Notes under the pieces: generated by a model | Databases searched by the model: none | What the model was told of the DNA's origin: nothing | The model's input: the letters and a program-made list of their open reading frames with translations, nothing else | IMG/VR virus record: IMGVR_UViG_2724679073_000003 | From: a virus | Taxonomy: Duplodnaviria; Heunggongvirae; Uroviricota; Caudoviricetes | Strand: one strand, 5' to 3' | Length of the DNA stretch: 64,000 nt | Shown: piece by piece, positions 2,637 to 13,505 of the stretch | How positions within the stretch are numbered: the stretch's first letter is position 1 | How the letters are laid out: each line of letters opens with the position of its first letter | Translations under genes and position numbers: made by a program

Positions 2637-4066
2637 TCCTCCTCATACGAAATATTGAAGGTGGAGTTTTCTGTATCCAGATAAACGAAATCGTAAAAGC
2701 CGTTGGACTCATTCCACTCGACAAACTCCAGATAAAAGTCGCGGAAATAGCCCAGCGTTTCGATAAACGCCCAAACGTCTTTTTTCTTAATCAGGATGTA
2801 CTTTCCGACGCGGTTCGGATCAAAGAAAGTTGAGTCGCGCCCAAATTTTTTTTCCAGTGCCGACTTCAGCTCATCGGTCACATTCTCAATGGTCAGGCTT
2901 GCCGATATCCGTCCGGTGATGGTTATCTTAAATGGTAGTTTTCTGACCTCTTTATAAGAGAATTTCTTGTTCAGTTCATTCGGTACCTTCTTAAAGGCAG
3001 CCAGGATCATTTCTTCAAGCTCTGACTGACTTTTATTCGGATGCCATCCTGAAATAAATATCTTATTGATATTCTGAACATTATAAGCACCATCTAATTT
3101 TTCTTGCTGACCCTCGCCCCATGCCTTTACCCAGGACAGTCCCGGGATGTTACGCACCAGAAAATACGTATAGTCCCCGCCCCATACGACCTGATCATCA
3201 TAGGCGAGGTAATATTGTGCACGGTTACGTGTGATCTCCGTTGTTTCGGCATCGGTACCTGTGGTTATAGGTGTCGTTGTCTTAACTGAAATCAAATTAG
3301 CTAAATTAGCCGCAGAATCGACAGGCGTCAGGTTTTGGCCAGCAACCAGGGTTATATCGCCGTTGGTGCACCATACCTTAAGCGTAATTGTCGAGCCTTC
3401 TGGCGGTATTTGCCCAATTAGCCCATCGCCGAATCGAACCCCCAACTGCTCGGATGGTTTATAAAACTCAACGTAGACCTGGCTTTTACTACCGGCTAAC
3501 CGGAACATAGTGCTGGAAGACCACTGCGTGGTCTTACCATCGGTCGTCACGAATACTTCCAGCTTATAGCAGACAGCAGTGAGAGCCTTTGATAACACGA
3601 CTTCCAGAAATTCTTTGGCTGCCGTAACGGTATATGTCACCTCCTGGATTTCCAACTGTGCCACTTCTACCGTACCGGTGCCGTCAACCAACCTGCATAC
3701 ATCCATAGTCATGTAAGGATACTGGTCGTCAGATATTAAAGGCATGTTTTTGGGGATTACCGCTGGGGCATCTTCACTTGTGGCGGTGATCTCAATCATC
3801 CCCGATGACGGTGTTGGCTTGGTACCAACGTAACTATTCGTTTCTGCCGCTGCCAGGATAGAGGAACGCCGCGTCGCGGTCGATATAAAGCCTTCAGCCA
3901 GCGCCGCATCGGCATACTGAAAGCACCTGTAGACAATCTGGGTAATAAACAATGTCAGCATCGAGACAAATTGAGAGCCGACAAACTTCGACCAGAATGA
4001 ATCTTTCTCGACAAGCTCTTCAAACTCTGCACGAATACTGTCTTTAGTCGGTGTTGTTTTACTCAT
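2633..4066 (-). CDS. Putative baseplate protein
   Basis: 477-aa ORF, translationally coupled to neighbours in the tail operon. Confidence 0.5.
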   Translation of the reverse strand: MSKTTPTKDSIRAEFEELVEKDSFWSKFVGSQFVSMLTLFITQIVYRCFQYADAALAEGFISTATRRSSILAAAETNSYVGTKPTPSSGMIEITATSEDAPAVIPKNMPLISDDQYPYMTMDVCRLVDGTGTVEVAQLEIQEVTYTVTAAKEFLEVVLSKALTAVCYKLEVFVTTDGKTTQWSSSTMFRLAGSKSQVYVEFYKPSEQLGVRFGDGLIGQIPPEGSTITLKVWCTNGDITLVAGQNLTPVDSAANLANLISVKTTTPITTGTDAETTEITRNRAQYYLAYDDQVVWGGDYTYFLVRNIPGLSWVKAWGEGQQEKLDGAYNVQNINKIFISGWHPNKSQSELEEMILAAFKKVPNELNKKFSYKEVRKLPFKITITGRISASLTIENVTDELKSALEKKFGRDSTFFDPNRVGKYILIKKKDVWAFIETLGYFRDFYLEFVEWNESNGFYDFVYLDTENSTFNISYEEE

Positions 4067-4422
4067 AGCACCACGTCCTGTGTGATAGTTATGTCCCTGA
4101 TACGAATGGATATTTTCAACTTATCAAAAGCATCTCCCTCGGCTACTGACAAGCCAGAAATCGGTATGTCAGGTAAATCTACCGTCAGTTTTTGCAACAG
4201 CATTGCCTCAACCGCAATTTGAACATGCGACAAGTTGGTCGGTTCGTGTTTAAACTGCGGTAAAACATTGCCCCATGACGGATCTCCGTATACCTCACCC
4301 TGATAAGTGTTTAGCCACTCATATAAACGAGCGCCCCAGGCCTCCTCCTGGGACTCATACGTTTTTACGCCGGATAACTCCAGCGTCAGCAAAGGATCAA
4401 TTTCGTTATTGTTGGCCATCAA
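4063..4422 (-). CDS. Hypothetical tail/baseplate protein
   Basis: 119-aa ORF with 4-nt overlaps to flanking genes. Confidence 0.5.
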   Translation of the reverse strand: MMANNNEIDPLLTLELSGVKTYESQEEAWGARLYEWLNTYQGEVYGDPSWGNVLPQFKHEPTNLSHVQIAVEAMLLQKLTVDLPDIPISGLSVAEGDAFDKLKISIRIRDITITQDVVL

Positions 4423-7400
4423 TCAACTCTCGCGTAGTCATTCATCAACGGATCATCAATTGACAGTGGCACCGTGCGCATAACGCCCGGTTGAGGCGTG
4501 CTGACCTTTACGACAGTTCCCTGGTCTTTCGCCGAGTCTTTAGTGTGCTCTTCAATCCTGGCAAGCAATGAGGTCATCTGCGCAAACAGCCGCTTCGTTT
4601 CACCATCAAGTGAAACGGTATTATCAGCCAACTGCATTGTCGGCTTGGCACCGGAGCCGCCAAGGTCACTAATAACCTGTCCGTCTATCTGCATACGACC
4701 GGTTGGTTGCTGCAAATCGTTGGCGGCAGTCGTCACCTGGAACGTGGAGGCTGGTTGAGGAGAATTATTTGAGCGCATTCCCCGGGCATTAATGAGTTTG
4801 TCATACAGTCCATCAATCCCCATTTGTGCACCGAGCTGGTCAAAGTAACTTGAGTTGCTGGCCACCGGACGCGCCTCTTCAACTGGCATCGGAGTATCAA
4901 CATACACATTGCCAGCTGCTGTTGCGGTCCCATTTCCTCGTGCACGTTCTTCGAGGGTTCCCTGGACGACTTCTCGACGCATCCCCCGACCATTCATGAA
5001 TTTGTTGACCAGATCGTTAACGCCAACAGCATTACCGATTTTGTCTACCAGACCGCCCTTCTCAAACGGGCTATCACCAGGGGTAAACGCCAGGCCAGTA
5101 GACTGATCGATAACGGCGTTATCAGGCAGTGGTCCCCTCACTCCATATTGCGCCCCCCCCTGTGCTCCTGCCCCTGGTGTATAGATTTCACCACCTAAAT
5201 AGCGCGCACGATGAGTATTGACCTTGATCGCGTACTCACGGTTTTCTTTCGATAAGTCACCTGTGCCTTTTTTCCACCTATTAATAGTGCCAAACCCAGC
5301 GTTATATGCAGTGATGGCCTCGTTTAAGTCTCCATTGGCTTGCTTCAGATACTTGCTCATGAGAAGAGCCGCAGCTTCTGCCGATTTCACAGGATCAAAT
5401 GCATCCGGTTCCGATATCCCTGTCTCTTTACGAGCAATACTCGTGAACTGGAACATCCCGAGTGCGCCACCACTTAACTTTCCATCTGGTGATCTTGTAA
5501 GCGGAGACTTTGCGTTAGGATCCCCTCCTGATTCAGTTGCAGCAATCGCGTAAAGAGTGCCTTCAGGAAGACCATATTTATTCTCTAGTTCAGCAAAATA
5601 CGGAGCTAACTTATCGAGATTTGCCTTACCTTCAGCGCCAAGGCTTCCGACTTTTACATCTAAGTTGCCATTATTGTAGGTATCAGCAGCTTTCTGAATG
5701 TCATTCCCAGTGCCGGTGGTATTACGCGACGATGATGACGAGCTATTTTGACCAATAGCTTTATCAATTTTCTGCAACGCGCTATTGCCCGTTTCTACGG
5801 CATTTGCATTGATAATCTGATTAGCAGTTTCTTTAACTGTTTTATTGCTATCTTTCGCCGTGTCCAGTGCCGCATTTATCACGCGGGTAACAATATTAGT
5901 CTGTTTGGCATCGGATTCAGTTTTAGAATCAGATGTCTCCTGGTGGCTATTAACCGGAGCTTTTAACTCTGGAGTGATTTCTTTCGCATTAGCCTCGCCG
6001 ATCGGATTGGGTATTTTTGATACAATCATTGCCGCAGGGGTATTTTTAACGGCATCAACCGCTGCATCTAATGCTTTACCGGGGAAATTTTTAACCCCAT
6101 CCCAAATATTACCAGCCGCCTCTTTAATATGTTTCCCTGGGTTCTTAATGAAATCAATTGCACTATCAATTGCATCACTGAAAACCTGTTTCAGGTTATC
6201 GACAGTAAAGAAGTCTTTTATGGCATCCAGCTTTTCAAGCAACTTATTAGATGTATCGCTAAACCATGCTGAAACAGCATCACCAATCTTTGCTGTGTAA
6301 TCATCGAACTTGGTAGAAATGGTGTCGCCAAGGTTAGAAATATATGTTTCTAAGTTGGTAACCCCGCTATCAATGGCCTGGGCAATACTTTCCGTCGAAA
6401 ATGATTGCAACATATTGCCGATATCCTCAAATCCAAGTGATTTGAGAACATCACCAATAGCACTGCTAATACCAGATACCAGTCCCCCCAAATCAAGAAC
6501 ATTGGCTAACGTATAAGCGGCTTTTTGCTGGAATGATGGATCTTGTCCTGATTTAAGCCCAAACGCTCGACGTTGCGCTTCTGTATCATTCCAACCGGTT
6601 ACCGCATCATAAATACCTCCAGCCACTGTGCCGACTAGGGGAATTGCGCGTAACGCCCCTTTACCAACTGCCTTTAATCCAAGTTTACCTGCTGCCCGGG
6701 CAGCCAAATCTCCGCCTTCATGAGCGAGAGTCTTCTTGCCACCACCGCGTAGCATTCCTACAAGTTTCTTTGCCCCCAGAGCGCCAAAAGCGAGTGCTCC
6801 AGCTTTTTTCAGCATGCCACGCCCCATTAACAACGACGCGACGCCACCGGCCCCCTTCCCTAACAGGCTAAATAGTTTGGACAGCAAGCCGCCCTTCTTT
6901 TTACCGGTGTTTTTGGCTATCTGATCAAGGGCGCGGAGAATCTTGTCATTGCCCTCTTTAATTTCGCTGGTCTGCTCCTGAAGTTCCTGAACCGTCCGTT
7001 TTTGGGTGTTAACCTGAACGACATCGGCACTATTTTGCGATTTACGCCTAAAAAAACCTTTTCTACGGCTGTTATCGTCATTGCCACGAATCACATCGGC
7101 AATAGACTTTCTGGCACCATTAAGCGATCCACCAACTTCTTTTGATATCCCGCCAAGCTCCTTCCCTGCTGCCCACAATGGACCAGCAACGGCATAACCT
7201 AACGCATCGACGGCACGAGTCTCTGAAGGGTTACCTATGCCTTCAGCTACTTTTGACAGTTTTTTTAATAAACCTGATTCAGCATTTAGACGCTCATCAT
7301 CCTCTTTGCGCCTGGCCTTTTCAGCACGTTCAGCACGGGCATCTTCCGCTGCGGCCTTACTCCCTGACTTTCCAATAAAACGACCACGCGCATCGCGTTG

Positions 7401-8050
7401 GTTTTGGCTTTTTTGCGCGCCGCCTTTTTGATCGAACATTTCGCGAGCGTGTTCGGCTGCTTCGGTCCGTTGTGCCTTTATATCCTCTGGTATAGCCTTC
7501 CTGCGTCTTTTTTTACCCTTTGGTGTAGTTGATTTGGCCTGCTGTTCCTGTTGAGCAATGCCCTCCTGAACTACACGAGAAACGTCCCCTAAATTAAGCC
7601 GTTTCATTGCGTCAACAATAGGGTCTACTGATGGCGCATTGGCCACAAAGTCTGGCCGGGAATTTTCGATTGTTCGATTTAATGCCGACACACTGCTGCG
7701 AGATACTGGGTCNNNNNNNNNNNNNNNNNNNNNNNNNNNNNNNNNNNNNNNNNNNNNNNNNNNNNNNNNNNNNNNNNNNNNNNNNNNNNNNNNNNNNNNN
7801 NNNNNNNNNNNNNNNNNNNNNNNNNNNNNNNNNNNNNNNNNNNNNNNNTGGTCACAAAGTCAGGACGTGAATTTTCGATTGTGCGATTTAATGCCGACAC
7901 ACTGCGAGAGACAGGATCAACTGTAGCAACTCGCCCCCCTTTCAAATCTTCAACGGCTTCCCGAATACCTGCAAGCTCTTCCAGCTCTTTTGCGCTGGCG
8001 GTTTCAACCGTCCTTATCACATCGTCAATGTTGGCGTTTTTTCTTTCCAT
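4419..8050 (-). CDS. sit: Sit-like structural injection transglycosylase / tape-measure-like protein (interrupted by N run 7713-7848)
   Basis: More than 1,100 aa; Gly/Ala/Lys-rich central region; lytic transglycosylase motif (ESGGDPNA...GMFQF...AYNAG); N-terminal fragment 7849-8050 and body 4419-7712 flank the N run. Confidence 0.75.
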
Positions 8051-9027: not shown

Positions 9028-9639
9028 TCAAAGAGAAAAGCTAAAGCCCAAAAGGGAAGCCAAAGAACTTGAGGATTGGTTAAACGTGCTGTGCAATGCG
9101 AAGGTCATTGGGAATGACTTAAATTCAGTAACCTGATCTCGCGCATAGGTGACATCGCCGGTAGTGACCGGGAATACCGTCATCTCATTTTCCAGTTTGG
9201 TTAAACCGGAGGACAGCAACCGATAAATACGCACATTGAGCAAATATTTAGACGGTATATTCCCGGTACCGTCTGGATTAATCACCCGACTTTTTACCGT
9301 CTTAAACCAGTCCAAAACGAGGCCATCAACGGTATCCCTGACCATCATTGTTATCTGCCCAGGCGAACGCTCCGTTGGCTGAAGGATATTCCCTCCACCG
9401 ATTTTAATCGTTTCATATTCGATGCTGTAATCGTGGTAGGTAATATCTTTGGCAAAGAAGTCTGCTCCCTCCAGTCCATCAACTTCGACAGAGAACTGCC
9501 ATCCTTGCGCGAACAGCATTTTGTTCATGATGATTGACGTCAGCTTACCAACTTCCCGCTCACCAACGCCGGAGCCAAATAATGTCGTCGTTAATGCCGA
9601 AGATACATAAGACTTTACTGAAGCAACATTAAGCCCCAT
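9028..9639 (-). CDS. Putative tail structural protein (tail-tube position in P1-like order)
   Basis: 203-aa ORF in the structural operon. Confidence 0.45.
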   Translation of the reverse strand: MGLNVASVKSYVSSALTTTLFGSGVGEREVGKLTSIIMNKMLFAQGWQFSVEVDGLEGADFFAKDITYHDYSIEYETIKIGGGNILQPTERSPGQITMMVRDTVDGLVLDWFKTVKSRVINPDGTGNIPSKYLLNVRIYRLLSSGLTKLENEMTVFPVTTGDVTYARDQVTEFKSFPMTFALHSTFNQSSSSLASLLGFSFSL

Positions 9640-9649
9640 ATCAGCTCCC

Positions 9650-10240
<591 letters not shown>

Positions 10241-10274
10241 TTAACCGATTCTACGAGTAGTCATTTGTGACAGG

Positions 10275-10751
10275 TCATTTTGCGCGCTTTAGGCAGCCAT
10301 CTTCAGGTGCCGCGTTGAAAAGCTCTGCGGCCTTACGTAGCGTAAATGTTGCGATTTTTTTTCCGTCTACGTATGCATCGAATGTTTTAACTTCCATATC
10401 AGGGGTATCTGACCAAAAACCATACCAGTAACTATCACCCACAGAGGAACCGATAGAACTGATAGGATATTCATCATCACCAACTTTCAGCGTTATTTGT
10501 TCTTTTTTAGCATCAAATGACTCACCGCCAGGTTCTGTTTTCATGAGAGTGAGTAGTCGTGTTCCTACTTGATTGGGATCCGTATTATTAAATCCAACAT
10601 CGCACTCAAATGTAAGCGTATAATTATCTTTGCTGGAAACAGCATAAGAACGAACACCATGAGTCTCGCCGGTTGACCATTTGCTTACATTTGCCATTGA
10701 TGAAAACGGAGTAAGCAAAGCAAGAATTAGAAAATATAGTTTAATGCGCAT
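10275..10751 (-). CDS. Secreted protein (sim-operon-like)
   Basis: N-terminal signal peptide MRIKLYFLILALLTPFSSMA; AAGGAG RBS upstream. Confidence 0.55.
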   Translation of the reverse strand: MRIKLYFLILALLTPFSSMANVSKWSTGETHGVRSYAVSSKDNYTLTFECDVGFNNTDPNQVGTRLLTLMKTEPGGESFDAKKEQITLKVGDDEYPISSIGSSVGDSYWYGFWSDTPDMEVKTFDAYVDGKKIATFTLRKAAELFNAAPEDGCLKRAK

Positions 10752-10802
10752 TAATTTATCTCCTTTGGATATTAATATTTTAATTAGTTAACCACCATAT
10801 AT

Positions 10803-11450
10803 TCACCATTCATAGGGTAAATTAAGCGCTTTTAAACCTTGCTGGAAAGTATTAAGAGAGCCATTTTTTTGTTGTTCCATTTTTTCGCGTGCAGCTTTCT
10901 CATACTGCTCCATCCGTTGGTTATACTCTTGCAATTCCTCCGGGGAGAGGTTTCCCATTGGGGAGTTTGTACCCGGCCCCCTGGCCCGTTCTTCAAGCGT
11001 ACCCTGAACGTTTTGATGGCGCATTCCCGGGGCGTTTCTGATTGAATCAATGCCATTTCTTCCAACGTCTTCTTTATTAACAGCATTGTTCGCCACCAGT
11101 ACGCCCCAGCTAGGGATAGCAAAATCAGGAGCGGTTTCGCATGCCTTTACCATATAATCGAAAGAGCTTCGATTAATCTCGTTTGCGTCGGGATTTAATA
11201 GGCGAGAATATTGGTATTTAGCATTTGCGTTGGTTGAGACTTTATACAGTTCCTGCTGCACCATCGCTTCAGAAAGTTTAAGGCGCTTCATATCTGACAG
11301 TAACTTCTTGCGCATGGATTCGTCTTCACTGACAGCAAATCCGTAAACGTGCCCAAGGTATTTCGTATAATCGGTACAAATCTCCTTTACGCTTGATGCT
11401 GCATTAACAGTCCCAGCCATAAATAATAACGGTAGTAATAGTTTTCTCAT
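10803..11450 (-). CDS. Sim-like secreted protein (candidate superinfection exclusion)
   Basis: Signal peptide MRKLLLPLLFMAGTVNA; C-terminal motif GMRHQNVQGTLEERARGPGT also present in Sit; start chosen at ATG with AGGTGAGG RBS. Confidence 0.5.
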   Translation of the reverse strand: MRKLLLPLLFMAGTVNAASSVKEICTDYTKYLGHVYGFAVSEDESMRKKLLSDMKRLKLSEAMVQQELYKVSTNANAKYQYSRLLNPDANEINRSSFDYMVKACETAPDFAIPSWGVLVANNAVNKEDVGRNGIDSIRNAPGMRHQNVQGTLEERARGPGTNSPMGNLSPEELQEYNQRMEQYEKAAREKMEQQKNGSLNTFQQGLKALNLPYEW

Positions 11451-11546
11451 TATAACCTCACCTGCCTTATAACTCATTTAGGGTACATATTTTCGCCTTT
11501 AAAAAAAAGAGGTTATTAGATCCAATTGTGCATTTATTAAACAAAC

Positions 11547-11563
11547 AATGCTCTAATAAATTT
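11547..11563 (+). promoter_or_regulatory. C1-operator-like site (Op51-like) upstream of immI
   Basis: AATGCTCTAATAAATTT vs recalled C1 operator consensus ATTGCTCTAATAAATTT. Confidence 0.6.
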
Positions 11564-11744
11564 GTATTTTTAAGTCACGAATGCTATCTTTTCGCATCAT
11601 ATTGACCTTTTAATCGTTCAGGCTTATAGTTCCGCCGTCGTAGCAAATTCTGCGACCAGGTTTGACAGCCTGAATGATTGTGCGGACAACCGCAGATTTC
11701 CGATATTGCGGTATTTTTGTGTCCGTTAAACCGCGTTACGCCCA

Positions 11745-11860
11745 AATTATGGTGGGGCGTGATGGGGAGGCTTCGGCCTGCTGGTTTCACAATCGCCAGT
11801 CTGTCAACCCTGTCACGTCCTGCCACCTGTTTGACAGCGGGTAGCAGGTTGTTAAACCTG
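11745..11860 (+). ncRNA. Candidate c4-like antisense RNA region
   Basis: Structured non-coding stretch with nested inverted repeats and a GGCTTCGGCC hairpin between the operator and icd; boundaries approximate. Confidence 0.3.
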
Positions 11861-11877
11861 ATTGTGAGGCCGTAACT

Positions 11878-12099
11878 ATGGTTAATGCCAATCCTTGCGC
11901 ACGCCAAGAATTCATCTGGCGTTTCTATTCCTGTAAAAAACACCACTATCACTTCGTTATCGCAGCAACTGAAGACGAAGCACGCTCTCAATTGCCTGAT
12001 GGCCCCTGCATTTTTACTGCCCGTTTTTCAACTAACTCGCGCAATTCACTTAGTTACTGGAACCTCCCCTTCTCTGCCGACGTTCAGGGGGGTTTATGA
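11878..12099 (+). CDS. icd: Icd-like small protein, overlaps ant start (ATGA)
   Basis: 73 aa; stop overlaps ant ATG as in P1 immI. Confidence 0.6.
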   Translation: MVNANPCARQEFIWRFYSCKKHHYHFVIAATEDEARSQLPDGPCIFTARFSTNSRNSLSYWNLPFSADVQGGL

Positions 12100-13505
12100 A
12101 AAAACCTCTCGTCACCCGTAATGAAATAGCCGAAGCGATCGCCCTGCATACAACCTGTATGCCGACACGGGAGATCCCCGGCGCAATTGCCAACTATTTC
12201 ATGATAACCAGGCGTTTTTATACCCGAACAGATAAGGCTGTGATCAACAAGCTACTGATAGCCGAGATCAGGGATTATTTGATTGAACAAGGACGTCTAC
12301 GTTACGCAACAGTGGCAGCAGAAATGAGAAAGGAGGCACATAGAATGACCAGTAATAATTTGAATGTTAAAAAACCAGCATCTGTTGCTTCAGCTACGCC
12401 ATCACCAGCTGTGAATGTTATCTCCAACACTGGAGATACAATCGACAGCCAGACGCTGTTAAAGATGGTCAATGAAGCGCGTAAGTTATGTGGGGAACCA
12501 GAGGTTCGGAACAACAAATTCATCGAAAAAATACTCGACGAATTAGAAGGTGAGGACGGTTACACAAAAAGTGCAACCGTGCCGCCAGGTGGCGGTACGC
12601 CTATGGTTGTCATAACCATGACCTACAAACAAGCCCTGCGAGTTGCCGCGCGCGAGTCAAAAGCGGTCCGCCGTTCGCTACATACCATGATTCAGGCATT
12701 GGAACCTATAAATGTTGAAAATCATCCTGATGAAATTCCCGTTCTGGAATGGCAGGGAGTACGCGTCGTGACAACCGAGACTCTTGCTAGAGGGTATGGC
12801 ACTACACCTACTCGTATTCAGCAGAACTACAATCGCAATGAAGAACGATTTGTAGAGGGTAAACACTTCTTTAAAATCAAAGGAGATGAGATAAAAAGTT
12901 TGCGACTATCTTTTAGCGAGTTGCAAATTTCCCCCAAGACCAGATCCTTAATACTCTGGACCGAACGCGGAGCGGCACGCATGTCTAAGATCGTAGACAC
13001 AGAGCAAGCGTGGGCATTCTTTGAAAAACTGGAAGACAGCTACTTCCGGCAAAAAGAACAGCAACCGGTCGCAATCCCCCAGACGCTTCCCGAAGCTCTG
13101 CGCCTGGCTGCCGAGCTGGCTGAACAAAAGCAGCTACTGGAACAGAAAACCCACCAGCTAAATCAACAGCTGGTGGCCGCAGCCCCTAAAGTCGATTTTG
13201 CCGACCGGGTATCAGCGGCTAATGGAATCCTGATCGGGAACTTTGCAAAGGTCGTTGGACTTAAGCAAAACGCCCTTTTCTCATGGTTGCGCCAGAACGG
13301 CATTCTCATGGCTTTTGGTGCGCGCAAAAACGTACCGCGCCAGCAGTACATTAACGCCGGGTATTTCACGGTGAAAGAAGTGGTGCTGGATGATGAAAAT
13401 GGCTACCAGATACGGCTGACGCCCCAATTAACGGGTAAAGGCCAGCAGTGGTTAACTCGCAAGCTACTTGATGCTGGTTTGTTAAAACCAGTAGCAATAG
13501 GTTAA
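12096..13505 (+). CDS. ant: Antirepressor Ant (ORF6N/Bro-N-like central domain plus KilAC C-terminal domain)
   Basis: 469 aa; PVLEWQGVRVVTTETLARGYG and C-terminal KilAC-type sequence. Confidence 0.8.
   Translation: MKKPLVTRNEIAEAIALHTTCMPTREIPGAIANYFMITRRFYTRTDKAVINKLLIAEIRDYLIEQGRLRYATVAAEMRKEAHRMTSNNLNVKKPASVASATPSPAVNVISNTGDTIDSQTLLKMVNEARKLCGEPEVRNNKFIEKILDELEGEDGYTKSATVPPGGGTPMVVITMTYKQALRVAARESKAVRRSLHTMIQALEPINVENHPDEIPVLEWQGVRVVTTETLARGYGTTPTRIQQNYNRNEERFVEGKHFFKIKGDEIKSLRLSFSELQISPKTRSLILWTERGAARMSKIVDTEQAWAFFEKLEDSYFRQKEQQPVAIPQTLPEALRLAAELAEQKQLLEQKTHQLNQQLVAAAPKVDFADRVSAANGILIGNFAKVVGLKQNALFSWLRQNGILMAFGARKNVPRQQYINAGYFTVKEVVLDDENGYQIRLTPQLTGKGQQWLTRKLLDAGLLKPVAIG

Follow-up and report, generated by a model that had tools for sequence, protein, structure and literature searches.

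A comparison of P1-like phage sequences indicates that simA, as known from bacteriophage P1, is a remnant of a longer gene, that the intact gene is common, and that its product (here SimA-FL) and the tape measure protein Sit have a selected linear module in common. We regard these descriptive findings as both secure and new. Neither the SimA–Sit similarity nor an intact simA is mentioned in the literature searched, the P1 genome paper (Lobocka et al., 2004) lying outside that search. The most economical reading of the sequences is that SimA-FL would interfere with incoming Sit via the shared module, either by competition or by direct binding.

P1 is among the classic model phages, and its phage-plasmid relatives are widespread and carry resistance genes. 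The module bears on the C-terminus of Sit after ejection, on what P1 needs from the envelope for DNA delivery and on exclusion at the sim locus. It is also a small, mutable target that could serve as bait peptide for a partner, as the object of a mutation set for exclusion and as a marker for sim-locus cassettes.

The intact simA gene and its product

The window, i.e., the whole stretch of 64,000 nt analyzed here (IMG/VR virus record IMGVR_UViG_2724679073_000003), belongs by sequence match of this region to the P1-like phages (Punavirus). Its minus strand carries, in order, sit (4419–7691), pmgB, tub, pmgC (9650–10216), a gene for a secreted protein of 158 aa (10275–10751) and a gene of 215 aa (10803–11450, with the stop codon at 10803–10805), which is adjoined by the divergent c4/icd/ant immunity region. 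The best phage match to positions 9600–12100 is vB_EcoM-Ro157c2YLVW (97% identical). P1 covers just 58% of the same interval because its segment between pmgC and c4 differs from that of the window.

The 215-aa gene, simA-FL, thus sits between pmgC and c4 and is transcribed away from c4, in synteny with P1 and Ro157c2YLVW. In the latter it is labeled as a hypothetical protein with the same start codon (ATG at 11450), which is preceded by a strong Shine-Dalgarno site, AGGTGAGG. The initial annotation had called the product Sim-like. The label fits the position of the gene at the sim locus (pmgC–c4) but not its sequence, as homology to SimC was not found and BLASTP gave nothing better than E = 29. 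The protein instead matches PHROG 3933 across residues 1–215 (phrog_3933, E = 6.5e-136), a family that carries no assigned function, and no match was obtained in NCBIfam or PADLOC searches. A Pfam match of the N-terminal domain to PTP-like phytases was rejected as spurious, since it scored 24.9 bits against a cutoff of 27 and the catalytic motif was not evident.

SimA-FL is predicted to consist of a Sec signal peptide, a helical domain, a flexible linker and a C-terminal helix. The Sec-type signal peptide, MRKLLLPLLFMAGTVNA (11400–11450, minus strand as for all features of this gene), was judged by eye and has a predicted cleavage site between VNA and ASS; the N-terminus has low confidence in the AF2 model. 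The all-helical N-domain (aa 20–130; 11061–11393) is folded with a pLDDT above 90 in AF2 and contains two cysteines, C25 and C104, that are invariant in the family alignment. The C-terminal helix (aa 170–197; 10860–10943) was identified from AF2 and the alignment, and the tail is swapped or absent in other members of the family. Between the two lies a segment resembling Sit (aa 122–168; 10947–11087), recognized by BLASTP, hhalign and phrog_2533 and made up of a short helix, N-A-P-G-M-R, VQGTLEERARGPGT and MGNL.

An alternative open reading frame of 96 aa lies in the +1 frame within simA-FL (10832–11122, minus strand) and matches the C-termini of the 205-aa database variants P0002, P0004, P0007, P0008, and P0017. 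These variants shift frame at differing points and are mostly singletons from read-archive assemblies; they may be assembly errors rather than real alleles.

The simA gene of P1 is a remnant

The first 48 aa of SimA-FL are 85% identical to P1 SimA, a protein of 52 aa annotated as a 'putative superimmunity accessory function' and encoded at the same position, divergent from c4. At the DNA level, P1 (NC_005856) positions 3453–3611 and window positions 11300–11626 are near-identical through the promoter region and about 40 codons. Beyond approximately codon 41 the P1 DNA diverges abruptly and the reading frame stops, and simB–simC stand in place of the remainder. P1 simA (gp043, 52 codons) is evidently the 5′ remnant of the 215-aa gene: P1 keeps a 5′ stump plus simB–simC, whereas the window keeps the 215-aa form. 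What remains in P1 is the signal peptide and about 30 residues, without the Sit-like module. The near-identity extends over the leader and promoter region upstream of simA-FL (11451–11626, minus strand), and the P1 annotation places the predicted PsimA in the matching region, divergent from c4/icd/ant.

The SimA family comprises 28 clusters at 90% identity in a large protein collection, and some plasmid records already name homologs 'simA domain protein'. Any match to simA-FL was found in 268 plasmid records and in 251 of 5426 complete E. coli genomes. The annotation of P1 simA can be corrected to a remnant of a gene that is full-length in 81 of those 251 genomes, i.e., intact in about one third of the matching P1-like E. 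coli replicons. Shortened alleles are also common. A frequent one of 163 aa (cluster P0003, 153 member sequences) keeps the motif whole.

This 163-aa allele is seen in the Salmonella plasmid pCVM28322-3 (NZ_CP051361, positions 1201–1692), where it is identical through the final codon of the motif (...RARGPG). Past the motif the DNA diverges fully, the protein ends in VAP and a stop codon, and genes for a secreted protein and an SH3-domain protein follow. A frameshift origin was ruled out for this plasmid, since the DNA past the motif is wholly different; recombination has broken the gene precisely where the motif ends.

The pmgC–c4 region is a hypervariable cargo region of P1-like phage-plasmids (PMC9603915). 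Cassette breakpoints can lie inside simA itself, near codon 41 in P1 and directly past the motif in pCVM28322-3. Most of the cargo genes seen at the sim locus start with signal-peptide-like N-termini. The Sit-like segment was absent from the other sim-locus cargo, namely SimB, SimC, a YfjT-like protein, an SH3-domain protein and a small membrane protein. As SimC and SimB lack the segment, mimicry of Sit cannot be a general mechanism of Sim proteins.

The 158-aa gene next to simA-FL (10275–10751, minus strand) encodes a secreted protein of the YfjT family (PHROG 3429; PF27224 as assigned on homologs). A gene of this family follows simA-FL in eight of eight non-P1 replicon types, including the window, with 27–64% identity to the window copy, and the two proteins may act as a pair.

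The most divergent SimA homolog, P0045 (176 aa, motif intact), is encoded on a metagenomic contig of 1218 nt. Its gene adjoins, in divergent orientation, a homolog (73% identity) of a 94-aa open reading frame of the window (28670–28954), which we take to be UpfC-like from the gene order of P1. As this location is not beside the immunity region, the gene may travel as a moron within P1-like genomes.

A module shared by SimA-FL and Sit

Sit is regarded as the tape measure of P1 (PMC9024508) and is not resolved in the P1 virion structure (PMC9024508, PMC12810830). The window copy (4419–7691, minus strand) encodes a tape-measure/injection transglycosylase that is 96% identical to P1 Sit. Its SLT lytic transglycosylase domain (aa 698–817; 5241–5600, minus strand) was identified by Pfam (PF01464, E = 2.6e-26) and folds confidently in the AF2 model.

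A short peptide common to the secreted protein and the C-terminal part of Sit had been reported in the initial annotation. Both copies were recovered: the motif core GMRHQNVQGTLEERARGPGT of SimA-FL (aa 142–161; 10968–11027, minus strand) and the motif core GMRREVVQGTLEERARGNGT of Sit (aa 903–922; 4926–4985, or 4926–4988 with the R that precedes it, minus strand), which have GMRxxxVQGTLEERARGxGT in common. The second GMR element claimed for Sit was likewise confirmed. This half-length repeat, QMGIDGLYDKLINARGMR (4773–4826, minus strand), represents the upstream half of the module only, i.e., an amphipathic helix followed by N-A-R-G-M-R (N-x-R-G-M-R).

The similarity extends somewhat beyond the core. 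Alignment of the two proteins by BLASTP gave 23 identical residues of 47 (E = 1e-8), hhalign of the SimA and Sit families aligned 31 columns with 95% probability (E = 2e-8), and SimA-FL cross-matched the Sit family phrog_2533 over 44 aa (profile positions 928–972, E = 7e-8). For Salmonella-type members the segments align without gaps over about 50 aa, from K-E-D-x-G-K-S to G-N-L-S-P. In a six-frame translation, the relaxed pattern GMR-x5-G-x-[LIM]-x2-RA is found once each in simA-FL and sit and nowhere else in the window, and the match recurs in every replicon type with both full motifs. By these comparisons the shared element is a homologous module of 31–47 residues, composed of a short amphipathic helix and N-x-[RP]-G-M-R-x-x-x-V-[QE]-G-x-L-x-x-R-A-x-G-x-G. 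A chance resemblance of two short peptides, to which only the shortness of the match would lend itself, has a practically negligible probability given E-values of 1e-8 to 7e-8 by three independent methods, the restriction of the relaxed pattern to two sites in the window and the recurrence across replicon types.

A longer similarity between SimA aa 67–168 and Sit aa 835–929 (35% by tblastn) was not accepted. Homology was confined by hhalign to the 31 columns, and the SimA part, unlike that of Sit, belongs to a helical domain folded with high confidence. SimA-FL evidently shares one module with Sit but is not a member of the Sit family (PHROG 2533), which is marked by a long helical ruler, an SLT domain and a conserved C-terminus (...DPLMNDYARVD); the match is confined to the 44 aa, and a Pfam search found no SLT domain in the 215 aa of SimA-FL.

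In Sit the module covers aa 887–929 (4905–5033, minus strand), about 70 residues past the SLT domain in a region predicted to be disordered. We checked its conservation among P1-type Sit proteins from E. coli, Salmonella, Klebsiella, and one metagenome, and the full form was present in all seven distinct sequences, with the consensus N-x-[RP]-G-M-R-[HRQ]-[EQ]-x-V-Q-G-T-L-[AE]-[ED]-R-A-[YR]-G-x-G. A Sit of 1124 aa with about 46% identity over the C-terminal region retains GMRHQVATGSMADRAYG, and the 1367-aa Sit P0047 (32% identical) has two copies of a partial form (GMRHQV..G.L..R). Past the module the residues form a variable linker. In the Sit of E. coli plasmid NZ_CP033848, a unit of about 26 aa (TAIPAPKTPQQENALAISQAMADSAP) stands three times in tandem right after ...RARGRG and lengthens the protein, so a change in length is tolerated past the module.

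An AF2 model of Sit aa 661–1090, built from a shallow alignment, gave pLDDT values below 50 for everything past the SLT domain and did not pack the module on that domain. The possibility that the module is an autoinhibitory segment docked on SLT is thus unsupported by this shallow-alignment model.

Conservation, selection and restriction of the module

Practically every member of the SimA family has N-x-x-G-M-R. The E. coli type also carries the distal half, V-[QE]-G-x-L-x-x-R-A-x-G, as do several types from Salmonella, Klebsiella, and metagenomes, and the motif is carried by at least nine clusters; in others the distal half is swapped for cysteine-containing C-terminal modules. The expectation that SimA orthologs conserve the motif consequently holds for many members but fails for about half of the divergent clusters, which lack the VQGTLEERARG half. 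In two replicons (L010 and L011) SimA lacks the distal half while Sit retains it, which implies that the full motif is not essential to the function of the SimA family.

The peptide has been kept while the DNA has diverged, as the initial annotation had noted: 16 of 20 aa are identical between the two cores compared with 39 of 60 nt, and the same codon is used at only four of the 16 conserved residues. Conserved module residues mostly use different codons across lineages, in SimA as well as in Sit orthologs, and synonymous sites are saturated between simA and sit and within each ortholog set. Selection on the peptide, rather than a recent DNA duplication, had been proposed on the basis of the window, and the saturated synonymous sites bear this out. 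These patterns point to purifying selection acting on the module in SimA and Sit alike and speak against a relic.

Among motif-bearing SimA proteins the module and the N-domain are conserved to about the same degree (means of 0.67 and 0.62), the module being higher in only 15 of the 28 pairs compared. In pairs with P0045, the most distant member, the module is much the better conserved, at 0.48–0.76 compared with 0.35–0.42 for the N-domain, and N-domain identity among the compared lineages is 35–68%. The module has a pLDDT of about 50 in both SimA-FL and Sit and is thus predicted to be flexible, and the AF2 model of SimA-FL, from a shallow alignment, docks it nowhere. It therefore has the traits of a short linear motif, with a location in a disordered region, conservation relative to its context (overall 0.67 versus 0.62, and up to 0.76 versus 0.36 for P0045) and recurrence in independent lineages.

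Among 1.84 billion representative proteins, a profile built on the SimA and Sit copies of the module gave 11 matches: tape measures of the Sit type, members of the SimA family, fragments of either and a single evident repeat artifact. Mimicry of a host protein was rejected, as the module was found in no non-phage protein among those searched. Across five replicons, the identity of the SimA and Sit motifs was 16–18 of 30 within a replicon and 12–20 of 30 between replicons. This lack of excess similarity led us to reject gene conversion or co-evolution of simA and sit within one replicon, and it speaks, for these five replicons, against tight co-evolution of a decoy and its target.

Comparison with known exclusion systems

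SimC (Sim), the processed periplasmic protein of P1 that excludes superinfecting phage, has the locus, orientation and signal peptide in common with SimA-FL, and both proteins are expected in the envelope. The sequences are unrelated, however (PHROG 14355 for SimC and 3933 for SimA-FL), and SimC has no Sit-like segment. Sim acts after adsorption and before DNA entry (cited in PMC8546580).

Exclusion directed at the tape measure is already known. T4 Imm brings about exclusion through binding to the tape measure, HK97 gp15 has been proposed to act similarly (bioRxiv 10.64898/2026.03.06.709160), and Ltp of Streptococcus phage TP-J34 is a further tape-measure-directed exclusion protein (PMC3952083). 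All three are encoded by the resident phage, and they are like SimA-FL in its proposed target (the ejected tape measure) and its proposed step of infection (after adsorption, before DNA entry). Unlike SimA-FL, these proteins are membrane proteins or lipoproteins, and none has been reported to carry a copy of a tape measure segment. No sequence relationship was found between SimA-FL and Imm, gp15 or Ltp, nor a match in PADLOC. An exclusion protein that bears a piece of the tape measure would be new.

Two further systems offer partial likenesses. The TolB-box peptides of colicins compete with Pal for TolB and are an example of short-linear-motif mimicry in envelope translocation. By analogy, the SimA module, which is short, conserved and located in a disordered region, would compete for a periplasmic site; the TolB box, however, mimics a host protein, whereas the SimA module appears homologous to the phage's own protein. 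T4 Spackle (Sp) is a small secreted periplasmic inhibitor of the tail lysozyme gp5. SimA-FL is likewise small, secreted and encoded by the resident phage, and it could neutralize a wall-degrading part of an incoming tail, but it has no detectable sequence or fold similarity to Spackle, and Sit has an SLT domain rather than a T4-type lysozyme. Spackle is mentioned in PMC11436027.

Possible roles of the shared module

The tape measure of myophages has its C-terminal part in the baseplate hub, and this part is the first to be released into the periplasm. When a P1-like phage infects, the corresponding part of Sit (SLT domain, module and C-terminus) would accordingly be expected to leave the tail tip first. 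In a lysogen expressing the gene, SimA-FL would already have been exported to the periplasm, where its module could compete with that of incoming Sit for the partner of the module, either a periplasmic or inner-membrane component or the Sit bundle itself. With penetration and DNA entry stalled, superinfecting relatives would be excluded by a decoy derived from the tape measure.

Several observations favor this reading: the homology of the module, selection on it in SimA as well as Sit, its confinement to these proteins and its location in regions predicted to be flexible, together with the signal peptide, the variable sim locus beside the immunity region and the precedents for exclusion directed at tape measures. 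Others weaken it. The protein credited with the Sim phenotype is SimC, which is unrelated to SimA-FL and lacks the Sit-like segment, about half of the divergent SimA clusters are without the distal half, and truncated simA alleles are common. Across the five replicons compared, the SimA motif is no closer to the resident Sit than to others, the module is in no host protein and AF2, with shallow alignments, shows no docking. On balance we propose only tentatively, at somewhat below even confidence, that SimA-FL is a periplasmic decoy or competitor of incoming Sit that excludes superinfecting relatives.

The module may also serve Sit in the cytoplasm, during tail assembly, and a copy in the periplasm would then compete only for parts of incoming virions. 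It is more doubtful still that SimA-FL is the first exclusion protein to display a linear motif of a tape measure in the periplasm and that it thereby marks the site on Sit for an envelope partner. If this were true, the motif would mark where P1-type tape measures engage an envelope partner for DNA entry and would give a direct handle on that partner.

SimA-FL could alternatively be a direct inhibitor or poison subunit whose module binds incoming Sit itself, with no third-party partner. The module of Sit would then be an element for self-association or intramolecular contact, and SimA-FL would cap the Sit bundle or, by analogy with Spackle and gp5, set its helical N-domain on the SLT domain. 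Such an inhibitor would suit the multimeric nature of tape measures, the direct binding of T4 Imm to its tape measure and the position of the Sit module about 70 aa past the SLT domain. It would also suit the constancy of the N-domain, the part of SimA that varies least, next to variable C-terminal modules. In the AF2 model of Sit aa 661–1090, on the other hand, the module is unpacked against SLT and the post-SLT region has low confidence, and we regard direct inhibition as unlikely.

Antagonism may also be unnecessary, if both proteins simply need the same envelope component, such as a periplasmic chaperone or protease, or peptidoglycan. SimA-FL would in that case be a lysogenic-conversion or envelope factor, possibly acting with the adjacent YfjT-family protein. 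The helix with N-x-x-G-M-R is universal in SimA and occurs a second time in Sit, whereas either family can dispense with the distal half; a universal minimal unit with an optional addition fits a generic docking element. The constant pairing of simA-FL with a secreted YfjT-family gene and the lack of co-variation with the resident Sit point the same way. For a generic envelope-docking signal, however, it is odd that the module occurs in no other protein of the 1.84 billion searched, and the gene stands at the classical superimmunity locus. We consider a motif for shared handling improbable, to about the same degree as direct inhibition.

A piece of sit might finally have been captured during cassette exchange at the sim locus and have persisted without function. 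The locus is indeed mosaic, with breaks inside the gene (near codon 41 in P1, and in pCVM28322-3 between ...RARGPG and the terminal VAP), and several SimA members have swapped the distal half of the motif. Yet the peptide has been kept across SimA lineages with 35–68% N-domain identity although synonymous sites are saturated, the motif is the best-conserved part of the most distant member, P0045, and the allele that ends right past the motif is frequent (P0003, 153 sequences) and has the motif intact. A functionless relic is therefore very improbable. Interference of SimA-FL with incoming Sit, whether by competition or by direct binding, stays the most economical reading of the sequences.

Further observations on the window

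The window contains two runs of N, at 419–511 and at 7713–7848. The second lies inside the 5′ part of sit, which is why the program-called open reading frame begins at GTG 7691 and has 1090 aa, compared with 1140 aa for P1 Sit; the real start of sit is upstream of this run. Both flanks of the run code for the same peptide (...PVSRSVSALNRTIENSRPDFV...), and it looks like either a tandem duplication of about 190 nt or an assembly or masking artifact. The antirepressor open reading frame next to icd (12096–13505, plus strand) has 469 aa, compared with about 345 aa in Ro157c2YLVW and 347 aa in P1, and the Ant protein of this element appears to be a different or longer form.
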